The translations under genes were made by a program, and so were the position numbers. This document shows positions 27,679-28,460 of a DNA stretch of 64,000 bases, piece by piece. The DNA is from Clostridiales bacterium (GTDB lineage: Bacteria; Bacillota; Clostridia; TANB77; CAG-508), in assembly GCA_003525075.1 (NCBI GenBank), contig DQFO01000014.1, positions 64,032 to 128,031 on the forward strand. Direction: 5' to 3'. The notes beneath the pieces were generated by a model, which was given only the letters and a program-made list of their open reading frames with translations, did no database searches and was not told the DNA's origin. Position 1 is the first letter of the stretch. Each line of letters starts with the position of its first letter.

Positions 27679-27707
27679 TTGACACATTTCGATTTTTGGT
27701 ATATAAT
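27679..27707 (+). promoter_or_regulatory. Consensus sigma-70/sigma-A promoter (TTGACA, 17-nt spacer, TATAAT) for the GC-rich kinase-like ORF
   Basis: TTGACA at 27679-27684 and TATAAT at 27702-27707. GGAGG at 27770-27774 lies 9 nt before the ATG at 27784. Confidence 0.6.
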
Positions 27708-27783
27708 TAATATATTAACCCATTGTATGGATTTGCTATTCAAAAATCGGATAGTAAAAAACAATTTATGGAGGTATGGCACT

Positions 27784-28416
27784 ATGACTACTCGTTGGAT
27801 TGCTGTTACTGGCTTGGACGGAAGTGGCAAAACCACTTTGGTCGACAATCTCGTTAAATTTCTCGAATCTAAGGGATTCAAGGTTTACCGGGATCGTTTC
27901 CCCCACGATAAGTATTTGACCAAGACTCTCTTGAATGAGAGCAAGGATGCTTATACTGATCGTCTGCTCTTTGCACTGGATAATCGCATCGCGGGTACTC
28001 ACCTGCGTGGCATCATTGAGACTGGTGAATATGATTTCATAGTTACTCAGCGTTGTTTCCTGGACAGTTTTGTCCATGGTGCAGTTCAGGGCTATTCCTA
28101 TTCTTGGGTGTCTGAACTCAATCATGTCAGAGATCTTCCCAAGTGTGACATTATGGTCCACATGGTCGCAGAAGCCCGCATCGCGTATGCGCGCATTTGC
28201 AATGATCCTGATGCTGATAAGTTCGAATATCCTGAATACATCGGCAAACAAGAGCAAGAAACCCGGCGGGCATATGTTGAAGTTGAAGCGCATAACAATC
28301 CTGCACTCATCCACTTTAACACTTGCCAAAACATCTACATGGACACCACTCAGATGTCCACTGATGAGGTCTTCGAAACGGTAAGCTCTAAGCTCGTTAA
28401 GATGCTCAACCTCTAA
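27784..28416 (+). CDS. Thymidylate-kinase-like (dTMP/dNMP kinase family) P-loop protein in a GC-rich (about 48% GC) cassette of foreign composition
   Basis: P-loop VTGLDGSGKTT, a DR(F) motif, and a LID-like region. The ORF track opens the frame at 27679, but the ribosome-binding site supports a start at 27784. Confidence 0.6.
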   Translation: MTTRWIAVTGLDGSGKTTLVDNLVKFLESKGFKVYRDRFPHDKYLTKTLLNESKDAYTDRLLFALDNRIAGTHLRGIIETGEYDFIVTQRCFLDSFVHGAVQGYSYSWVSELNHVRDLPKCDIMVHMVAEARIAYARICNDPDADKFEYPEYIGKQEQETRRAYVEVEAHNNPALIHFNTCQNIYMDTTQMSTDEVFETVSSKLVKMLNL

Positions 28417-28421
28417 AAAAT

Positions 28422-28460
28422 AAAGCCCAAGTAGCGTATACGTTACTTGGGCTTTATTTT
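28422..28460. terminator. Strong GC-rich intrinsic terminator for the kinase-like cassette; convergent with the GGDEF gene
   Basis: AAAGCCCAAGTA-gcgtatacgt-TACTTGGGCTTT followed by ATTTTATT. Confidence 0.75.

Follow-up and report, generated by a model that had tools for sequence, protein, structure and literature searches.

The closest described relatives of the gene studied here are the bacterial thymidylate kinases (Tmk). This gene, predicted to encode a nucleotide kinase, lies at positions 27784 to 28416 of a 64,000-nucleotide (nt) stretch of DNA from a Clostridiales bacterium (GenBank assembly GCA_003525075.1, contig DQFO01000014.1, positions 64,032 to 128,031; hereafter the window). Compared with the Tmk of Aquifex aeolicus (2pbr) and M. 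tuberculosis (1g3u), its product has the same fold, the same GLDGSGKTT P-loop, the catalytic Arg after strand 3, and the LLF-A-L-D-(N)-R segment with its base-stacking Phe, and its lid ends in D-K-F-E where that of Tmk ends in (N/D)-R-F-E. It differs from them in its low identity (17-24%), in having T-Q-R for DRX and R-F/L-P for R-E-P, in the linkage of its gene to that of a PHP-family phosphoesterase, and in a GC-rich, hairpin-dense coding sequence (CDS).

Tmk-fold proteins that were annotated as dTMP kinase and lack the EP motif have proved to be polyphosphate kinases, as in the case of Sulfolobus PPK3; the same work described the importance of the EP motif for thymidylate binding and the positive charge of the polyphosphate cleft of PPK3 (bioRxiv 10.1101/2024.08.28.610084). 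The archaeal PPK3 proteins (Saci_2019, STK_15430, PDB 5h70/2plr) resemble the present kinase in the Tmk fold, the dTMP-kinase annotation, the missing EP motif, and an adjacent phosphoesterase gene. However, they have a basic polyphosphate cleft and a regulatory paralogue, whereas the present family is acidic, stands alone except for a degenerate paralogue at one locus, and has no specific sequence affinity to PPK3. The PHP protein encoded next to the kinase is comparable to TrpH/YciV (RNase AM) and to Cv1693-type 3',5'-nucleoside bisphosphate phosphatases in size (~290 amino acids, aa), in its N-terminal DLHxHT motif, and in its best NCBIfam and PDB matches; unlike them, it scores far under the equivalog cutoffs and forms a distinct subfamily with a predicted activity.

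At the nucleic acid level, it is known that GC-rich segments point to structured RNA when they lie in an AT-rich genome (Stav et al. 2019, PMC6429828), and selection for extreme mRNA structure in coding sequences has been documented in general (Gebert et al. 2019, PMC6544989). The kinase gene is like the former in being a GC-rich island in an AT-rich genome, but unlike noncoding RNAs it has no conserved architecture; it is like the latter in that its native arrangement of synonymous codons is far more folded than shuffled ones. What sets it apart from both is that the effect is tied to one orthologous protein-coding gene in dozens of species, with the GC content at third codon positions (GC3) rising from ~0.12 to ~0.4. 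In this study, we show that the PHP and kinase genes are a two-gene module inherited across a large clade of uncultured low-GC gut Clostridia with occasional allele swaps by homologous recombination, that the GC-richness is a maintained property of the kinase coding sequence alone, and that this coding sequence is packed with hairpins beyond chance for its amino-acid sequence and codon usage.

Results

GC content of the kinase gene

In 300-nt windows, the GC content was 0.43-0.48 over 27750-28350 and about 0.25 in the flanks. The open reading frame (ORF) of the kinase had a GC content of 0.458, with values of 0.53, 0.35, and ~0.49-0.50 at the first, second, and third codon positions (GC1, GC2, and GC3), against 0.264 for the whole window. 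Its GC3 of 0.49 was the highest among the 52 window ORFs with 120 codons or more; the next value was 0.18 and the median 0.11 (z = 16). The preliminary description of this DNA had reported a GC-rich unit in AT-rich surroundings, and the gene is indeed a strong outlier; all features it described were located at the positions given there. The same pattern was observed at the orthologous loci, where the GC content was 0.33-0.51 for the kinase gene and 0.25-0.33 for the flanks at all loci, and where the GC3 of the kinase was first or second among the neighbouring ORFs in 34 of 35 cases.

Four-fold degenerate sites were identical between orthologues at a frequency of 0.32, compared with 0.28 expected if they were independent. 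This value is near that of unrelated sequences, indicating that the synonymous sites have fully turned over. Nevertheless, G+C amounted to 37% at the four-fold sites of the kinase gene and to 11% at those of the adjacent PHP gene, which is AT-rich with a GC3 of about 0.1. Saturation together with the retained 37% indicates that the composition is maintained and is no relic. At variable amino-acid positions, GC1/GC2/GC3 were 0.49/0.33/0.41 in the kinase and 0.39/0.18/0.12 in the PHP gene, and G, A, R, and P residues (GARP) made up 0.20 and 0.07 of such positions, respectively; this shift at positions where the protein is free to vary indicates that the force acts on the nucleotides and not on the protein. 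The shift ran from the start codon to the stop codon: the leader had mostly 15-22% GC, the coding sequence 36-49%, and the sequence past the terminator 24-28%.

Several other causes of this composition were considered. GC3 was uniform along the gene and several codons were used in every conserved amino-acid column, by which an embedded conserved nucleotide element was rejected. Codon use was near-uniform and no k-mer was strikingly absent, so avoidance of a cleavage motif or of a codon (e.g. AAA, ACA) was discarded as well. Translational optimisation is unlikely, since G-ending codons and rare Arg and Leu codons are freely used. An overlapping antisense gene at 27766-28329 was rejected because TTA codons of the orthologue at locus L009 are stop codons in the antisense frame and synonymous sites vary freely. 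Polarisation of AT/GC changes by parsimony was dropped, as the PHP control showed that the method is biased at this divergence.

Folding of the kinase coding sequence

The kinase CDS of the window had a folding energy of -198.5 kcal/mol, compared with -176 +/- 7 kcal/mol for dinucleotide shuffles (z = -3.3 and -3.1 with two implementations). When synonymous codons were shuffled with the protein and the codon usage kept, the z value was -6.1. All 30 clade orthologues tested were over-folded relative to synonymous-codon shuffles, with z from -1.8 to -26 (mean -5.8, median -4.75), and the implementation that gave -3.3 for the window returned -4.4 and -14.5 for the orthologues at L004 and L039. 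The mean z was -0.7 for six PHP genes and five window genes used as controls, -1.3 (standard deviation 1.2) for 33 further window ORFs, and about 0 (range -3.0 to +2.2) for five homologues from GC-rich bacteria.

When base pairs were restricted to a span of at most 50 nt, the mean z was -4.25 for the kinase and -0.49 for PHP (Mann-Whitney p = 1.6e-9). The excess survived this limit, indicating that it consists mainly of local hairpins; the CDS at L039, for example, is a chain of ~15 near-perfect stem-loops. Within subclades, the consensus energy was better than that of column-shuffled alignments in seven of eight groups (z -2.3 to -5.9), whereas that of PHP was not. Long-range pairing of the 5' end of the CDS with a specific conserved partner was also sought, and the candidates were inconsistent between orthologues.

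Some further observations on folding were made. The z value was about -3.6 for two of the six PHP genes tested (the window gene, over 26791-27423, and that of L042) and near 0 for the other four, a spread that may reflect the small number of shuffles. The recO gene of the window, which has an ordinary GC content, had the second most negative folding z in the window, which may be noise. In addition, the flanks of these AT-rich genomes contain other small GC-rich ORFs (GC 0.40-0.49) that have no Pfam match and are over-folded relative to synonymous shuffles: L032:12358-12744 (z = -5.0), L034:12327-12890 (-4.8), L042:12497-12916 (-3.0), L030:1421-2062 (-3.0), and L028:11411-11818 (-2.8). Promoters of the consensus type and strong Shine-Dalgarno sites were seen in at least two of these five, and the five ORFs may belong to one class with the kinase gene.

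Linkage to the PHP gene and distribution

Species-level genomes with a close homologue of the kinase (44-91% identity) numbered 34, and every one comes from uncultured gut Clostridia of low GC content, such as Clostridium sp. 26_21 and CAG:343. The PHP gene adjoined the kinase gene, and the kinase gene was GC-elevated, in 38 of 38 other informative loci. Considering genome loci alone, the PHP gene was adjacent in 33 of the 33 that were informative, was 55-96% identical to that of the window, and usually lay upstream in tandem; the two genes were convergent in L032, L038, L039, and L042 and divergent in L040 and L041. Beyond PHP, the neighbours varied between loci. The layout was alike in L004-L008, which belong to an abundant human-gut species. 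With the L042 protein as the query, four deeper subfamilies of the kinase were found, each with PHP directly upstream and lying among housekeeping genes, e.g. guaAB, infC-rpmI-rplT, recA, and secA. Pairwise identities of kinase and PHP were correlated (Pearson r = 0.71, 528 pairs), as expected under co-inheritance.

These results bear on the origin of the gene. The preliminary description held foreign origin to be near-certain, taking the unit for an island beside a host PHP gene. Although the kinase is atypical in composition (GC3 z = 16), it is not absent from the same locus in relatives (present in all 38), and the GC-elevated gene adjoins PHP in every related AT-rich genome examined, so that this claim could not be upheld. 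The PHP gene is host-like in being AT-rich, as had been supposed, but it is a conserved partner of the kinase and not an unrelated neighbour. The suggested link to phages and nucleotide modification likewise found no support: a search of phage records returned only ordinary phage Tmk with 23-29% identity as best matches, and none was found in IMG/VR, by which phage origin was rejected. Direct repeats bracketing the unit, tRNA genes in the window, and mobility genes were not seen; the neighbours are MscL, PHP, and GGDEF genes. The more distant homologues of the kinase (35-42% identity) occurred solely in GC-rich phyla.

Exchange of alleles was also observed. L009 shares the PHP gene, the promoter, and the leader with the window. 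In the CDS and terminator, however, it is 99.5% identical to L010, and the flanks of L010 reach only ~90% identity; the breakpoint of this swap lies at the ribosome-binding site/start codon. The kinase of L042 was only ~40% identical to the others, whereas its PHP was ~69% identical.

A short metagenomic contig (L056:659-1312) has a kinase gene of mixed make-up: its 3' half and terminator match the window exactly, and its 5' half represents a divergent allele richer in AT. Either recombination within the gene has occurred naturally, or the assembly has fused two sequences in the region encoding the conserved FLDSFVHG. The window also differs from its nearest genome, L009, in a block at 28124-30520 (the 3' half of the kinase gene, the GGDEF gene, and an ORF of 323 aa at 29422-30393) that is 66-93% identical, with just 67% for the 323-aa protein, between flanks (PHP and LDH) that are 95-100% identical, i.e. 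a strain-variable mosaic. Local hypermutation was rejected, since the high synonymous divergence from L009 belongs to this wider block.

Features of the locus

The features of the locus are as follows.

26791..27675, plus strand: gene of the PHP-family phosphoesterase, 294 aa (Pfam PHP, 36.9 bits; N-terminal DLHMHT metal motif)
27679..27707, plus strand: predicted sigma-70-type promoter, TTGACA-17 nt-TATAAT, 12/12 match, beginning 4 nt past the PHP stop codon
27732..27758, plus strand: tentative hairpin in the 5' untranslated region, stem TTTGCTATTC, loop AAAAATC, stem GGATAGTAAA
27770..27774, plus strand: Shine-Dalgarno sequence GGAGG, 9 nt upstream of the ATG at 27784
27784..28416, plus strand: kinase CDS, 210 aa and stop codon (28414-28416), thymidylate-kinase fold; GC island with 46% GC
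28061..28081, plus strand: recurrent hairpin 1, CDS nt ~278-298, GGAC..GTCC, coding for LDSFVH; seen in the subclade consensus folds and the positional profile
28222..28260, plus strand: recurrent hairpin region 2, CDS nt ~439-477, coding for DKFEYPEYI
28417..28460, both strands: bidirectional intrinsic terminator with a 20-bp stem and a GC-rich core, preceded by an A-run and followed by a T-run
28470-29396, minus strand: GGDEF gene, convergent with the kinase gene

The conservation of the hairpin at 28061..28081 may be partly owed to the invariant peptide that it encodes. The TTGACA-17-TATAAT promoter and the GGAGG ribosome-binding site, both noted in the preliminary description, were confirmed, as was the arrangement of a unit with its own promoter and terminator facing the GGDEF gene. 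The promoter was the sole 12/12 match within 26600-29500; the arrangement TTGACAtaa-17/18-TATAAT was perfect in 25 of 35 orthologous loci, and GGAGG or AGGAGG was found in nearly all orthologues. The terminator had also been noted, with a stem of 12 bp; the stem is in fact 20 bp long and strong on both strands (plus strand, -29.1 kcal/mol, z = -9.65; minus strand, -25.2 kcal/mol, z = -7.3). On either strand it consists of a GC-rich hairpin followed by a U-run, as intrinsic terminators do. The flanking U-runs and the strong fold on both strands indicate that it ends the kinase gene as well as the GGDEF gene that converges on it. A simple terminator scanner missed the hairpin because of its limits on stem and loop size. 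A comparable hairpin was present 3' of the stop codon in every orthologue.

A leader hairpin of 7-14 bp was found at the equivalent place in the nearer orthologues, with differing stem sequences, and was lacking in deep branches, where the leaders are short. Taken by itself, the window hairpin was not significant (z = -1.2), and no consensus structure was obtained by RNAalifold from a MAFFT alignment of the leaders. An Rfam covariance-model scan of 27400-28700 gave only spurious sub-threshold matches, on the terminator hairpin, by which a riboswitch or RNA of another known family, in either the leader or the CDS, was rejected.

The public gene call P0001 is the mechanical ORF at 27679-28416, with 245 aa and a TTG start inside the -35 hexamer. 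The true start is the ATG at 27784, as in all orthologues, and the 245-aa reading is an over-extension. Two sheep-gut genomes with a divergent PHP gene (L040:9900-9989 and L041:9900-9989) have an in-frame ATG with its own Shine-Dalgarno sequence ~60 nt upstream of the aligned start, which suggests a 20-aa N-terminal extension or a mis-set start. Farther from the unit, the gene of the mechanosensitive channel MscL (26190-26699, minus strand) encodes a C-terminal zinc-ribbon extension (CxxC...CxxC), an unusual fusion.

The kinase and PHP proteins

As in the preliminary description, the 210-aa product is a thymidylate-kinase-like P-loop protein. It matched Pfam Thymidylate_kin (PF02223) with 35.6 bits (cutoff 27) and the NCBIfam dTMP-kinase equivalog TIGR00041 with 49.1 bits, under the cutoff of 83.25. 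An AlphaFold2 model built on 24 homologues had a pLDDT of 92.7, and the top 50 Foldseek matches to the PDB were all Tmk-family entries, with best TM-scores of 0.75-0.77 and identities of 17-24%. An HMMER search of 1.84 billion representative proteins yielded only 21 clusters at E <= 1e-30, rising to 80 with the threshold at E <= 1e-10, and ordinary Tmks scored ~50-58 bits against the family profile. The small number of clusters and the low scores of canonical Tmks indicate that the kinase is a small divergent branch of Tmk outside the canonical orthologue group, i.e. a variant subfamily inside a known fold family.

The P-loop GLDGSGKTT, which agrees with the Tmk pattern GxxGxGK(S/T)T with an acidic third position, was invariant in the 24 aligned members. 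At the DRX position the family has T-Q-R-(C/G)-F, in which the Arg is invariant and the Asp is replaced by an invariant Gln. At the position of the thymidylate-binding motif R-E-P it has R-(F/L)-P-H-D, the Glu being absent in all members. The LLFALDNR segment with the base-stacking Phe is retained, as is a lid ending in D-K-F-E with the lid Arg/Lys. Invariant blocks specific to the family are FLDSFVHGAVQGYSYSW and the acidic lid DPDADKFEY. The proteins are acidic (pI 5.0-5.6, net charge -5 to -11) and under purifying selection, the nonsynonymous substitution rate divided by the synonymous one (dN/dS) being ~0.07 between close alleles. No canonical tmk gene was seen in the ~0.85 Mb of clade sequence examined, which is ~1% of each genome.

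At L038, a degenerate paralogue of the kinase (L038:4131-4769) was observed on the far side of PHP, with the P-loop GMDGAGKTA and the changes YTDR to YTDC and TQRGF to TNQGY. Its GC content is 0.41 and it is not over-folded (z = -1.2). The arrangement resembles catalytic/regulatory pairs such as PPK3.

The PHP protein scored 80 bits against NCBIfam RNase RNM (cutoff 375) and 71 bits against 3',5'-nucleoside bisphosphate phosphatase (cutoff 400). The closest solved structures were 3e0f, 7ug9 (a 5'-3' exoribonuclease), and 2yb1. From these sub-threshold matches and nearest structures, the protein would belong to the group of TrpH/YciV (RNase AM) and pAp phosphatases.

A homologue with 36% identity was observed in Mycobacterium sp. 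E3198 (L046:8740-11193), between a SLOG (LSDAT) protein and an NT5C 5'-deoxynucleotidase. Nearby genes encode a STAND-WD40 NTPase of 1506 aa and a protein with a RyR domain, and the context resembles a nucleotide-centred conflict system. The mycobacterial homologue and the NT5C enzyme make a second pairing of such a kinase with a nucleotide phosphatase, which hints at pyrimidine deoxynucleotides. Apart from this NT5C/SLOG/STAND context, the gene neighbourhoods of the outgroup homologues were heterogeneous and unrelated.

Discussion

Our account joins three elements: an inherited PHP-kinase module, the joint action of a nucleotide kinase and a PHP enzyme similar to RNase AM and pAp phosphatases, and an mRNA selected for dense structure. 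As a whole, we give it an even chance of being correct. The kinase most likely phosphorylates a nucleoside 5'-monophosphate, possibly that of a pyrimidine deoxynucleoside, with ATP, and the PHP enzyme would supply such monophosphates from nucleoside bisphosphates or short oligonucleotides. If stable base pairing is selected for in an AT-rich background, G+C would rise at all codon positions, as in structural RNA genes. The perfect promoter in 25 of 35 loci, the strong Shine-Dalgarno sequence, and the strong terminator suggest that the gene is probably not meant for weak transcription; combined with dense folding, they might, speculatively, yield an mRNA that is long-lived, nuclease-resistant, or slowly translated.

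Several points weigh against this account. The direction of causality, from structure to GC content, is one that we infer. The reverse complement is almost as over-folded (mean z -3.8, compared with -5.3 for the sense strand), which leaves room for a DNA-level or mutational cause. A family-wide consensus fold was not found (RNAalifold structure conservation index about 0), and the positions of the hairpins are mostly not conserved, with just two recurring broadly; what is conserved is the overall amount of folding and not an architecture. The recO gene of the window (11677-12381, minus strand) reached z = -5.4 on 9 shuffles, so that the -6.1 of the kinase is extreme and not unique. As for the biochemistry, the motifs of the acceptor site are unlike those of true Tmk (TQR for DRX, RFP for REP), which makes the substrate uncertain, and the PHP and kinase genes are separately promoted in most genomes, so that their coupling is read from adjacency alone.

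The composition might instead have arisen at the DNA level or have been imported. If the gene were a recombination hotspot, GC-biased gene conversion and template-switch perfection of quasi-palindromes could produce both GC-richness and hairpins as by-products, with no selection on the mRNA. The exchange of gene-sized alleles with breakpoints at the edges of the CDS fits such a process, as do the possible intragenic recombinant L056, the kinase of L042 that is far more divergent than its PHP, the over-folding of the antisense strand to nearly the level of the sense strand, and the shift at all codon positions, variable amino-acid sites included. However, the shift ends at the start and stop codons, the leader remaining at 15-22% GC; the better-conserved adjacent PHP gene shows nothing alike; the sense strand is more stable than the antisense strand in 10 of 12 orthologues; and the feature persists over a very deep radiation. 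The excess of ~0.3 in GC3 of the kinase also seems larger than is typically reported for GC-biased gene conversion in bacteria. We regard a DNA-level by-product as decidedly unlikely. Recent horizontal acquisition of a GC-rich cassette, perhaps from a phage, between host PHP and GGDEF genes would account for the extreme contrast with the flanks and for the self-contained promoter-to-terminator unit, but it is hardly credible in view of the GC-elevated kinase beside PHP in every related genome examined, the GC content kept in spite of saturated synonymous sites, the correlated divergences of kinase and PHP, the search of phage records and IMG/VR that gave no relatives, and the flanks in which repeats, tRNA genes, and mobility genes were not seen. 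The restriction of more distant homologues to GC-rich phyla makes an ancient transfer from GC-rich bacteria into the ancestor of the clade possible; such a transfer cannot explain the present GC content, because the synonymous sites have fully turned over since.

Regarding the biochemical role, the kinase could be the housekeeping dTMP kinase, a xenologous replacement of canonical tmk, its adjacency to PHP being functionally meaningless. It has the Tmk fold, GLDGSGKTT, the catalytic Arg, LLFALDNR with the stacking Phe, and the DKFE lid end; every clade genome found has it, in one copy; one orthologue is labelled 'dTMP kinase' by JGI; and canonical tmk was not seen, albeit in only ~1% of each genome. 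Nevertheless, we consider this rather unlikely, since the protein scores 49 bits against an equivalog cutoff of 83 and canonical Tmks reach only ~50-58 bits against the family profile, every member has other residues in place of the DRX Asp and the REP/EP Glu, the linkage to PHP survives inversions, a homologue stands beside an NT5C nucleotidase in Mycobacterium, a genus with its own canonical Tmk, and a housekeeping role would leave the GC content and structure unexplained. The resemblance of PHP to RNase AM and 5'-3' exoribonuclease structures, together with an acceptor site different from that of true Tmk, recalls the kinase-phosphoesterase pairs that are typical of end-healing systems: a polynucleotide kinase could phosphorylate 5'-hydroxyl RNA fragments into substrates for a 5'-phosphate-dependent 5'-3' exonuclease activity of PHP, as an RNA clean-up or repair pair. 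This is improbable, because the best structural matches are all mononucleotide kinases with a closed lid, the nucleoside monophosphate pocket retains its base-stacking Phe and the Arg next to it, and no polynucleotide-kinase family was among the Pfam matches at E <= 0.01. Only slightly less plausible is a conflict or defence module that manipulates nucleotide pools. The SLOG, STAND-WD40 NTPase, and NT5C neighbours of the mycobacterial homologue and the exchange of alleles between lineages would suit it, as would a weak match to the PADLOC candidate PDC-M51B (E = 2.5e-5). On the other hand, the gene is single-copy among housekeeping genes in every clade member found, its dN/dS of ~0.07 between close alleles shows purifying selection, and the other outgroup contexts are unrelated; membership in a defence system was rejected, as the PADLOC candidate was the only match beyond the P-loop. 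By analogy with Sulfolobus, where the Tmk-like PPK3 lies beside ppx, the pair might also be a polyphosphate kinase and a PHP polyphosphatase. The S. tokodaii homologue 2plr/5h70 is among the fold matches and the pairing with a phosphoesterase is parallel; even so, we deem this very improbable, since the acidic family (pI 5.0-5.6, charge -5 to -11, invariant lid DPDADKFEY) fits a polyphosphate site poorly compared with the positive cleft of PPK3, and true Tmks score equal to or above the PPK3 homologue. We know of no PHP polyphosphatase.

Compositional outliers are routinely read as recent horizontal transfer. At this locus, composition alone misleads, because this one gene keeps a GC3 of ~0.4 in dozens of species whose genomes stand at ~0.12, although its synonymous sites have turned over completely. 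The kinase is a divergent Tmk-fold protein now annotated as 'dTMP kinase' without support, and its tightly linked pair with PHP is newly defined and widespread in abundant uncultured Clostridia of the human and animal gut.

A wider proposal, which we make with considerable doubt, is that the kinase is the clearest member of an unrecognised class of genes in very AT-rich gut Clostridia, namely stand-alone units with consensus promoters, strong ribosome-binding sites, strong terminators, and GC-rich coding sequences whose drifting hairpins are kept over the long term. The other GC-rich ORFs noted in the flanks share these traits. If so, the folded RNA or the hairpin-rich DNA would have a role of its own: it might serve as an unusually persistent mRNA (through dormancy or attack by RNases), as a gate on translation responsive to helicase or ribosome capacity, or as a cassette prone to recombination.

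Taken together, what is otherwise known only as a statistical trend appears in the composition and structure of the kinase gene in an extreme form and across its orthologues. Because the over-folding coincides with the GC signal, is specific to this gene, and is absent from the GC-rich outgroup homologues, the 30 or more independent sequence solutions are a natural replicated system for asking what dense coding structure does for a bacterial gene, and they bear on whether selection for structure or a recombination-linked bias overrides the genome-wide AT pressure.

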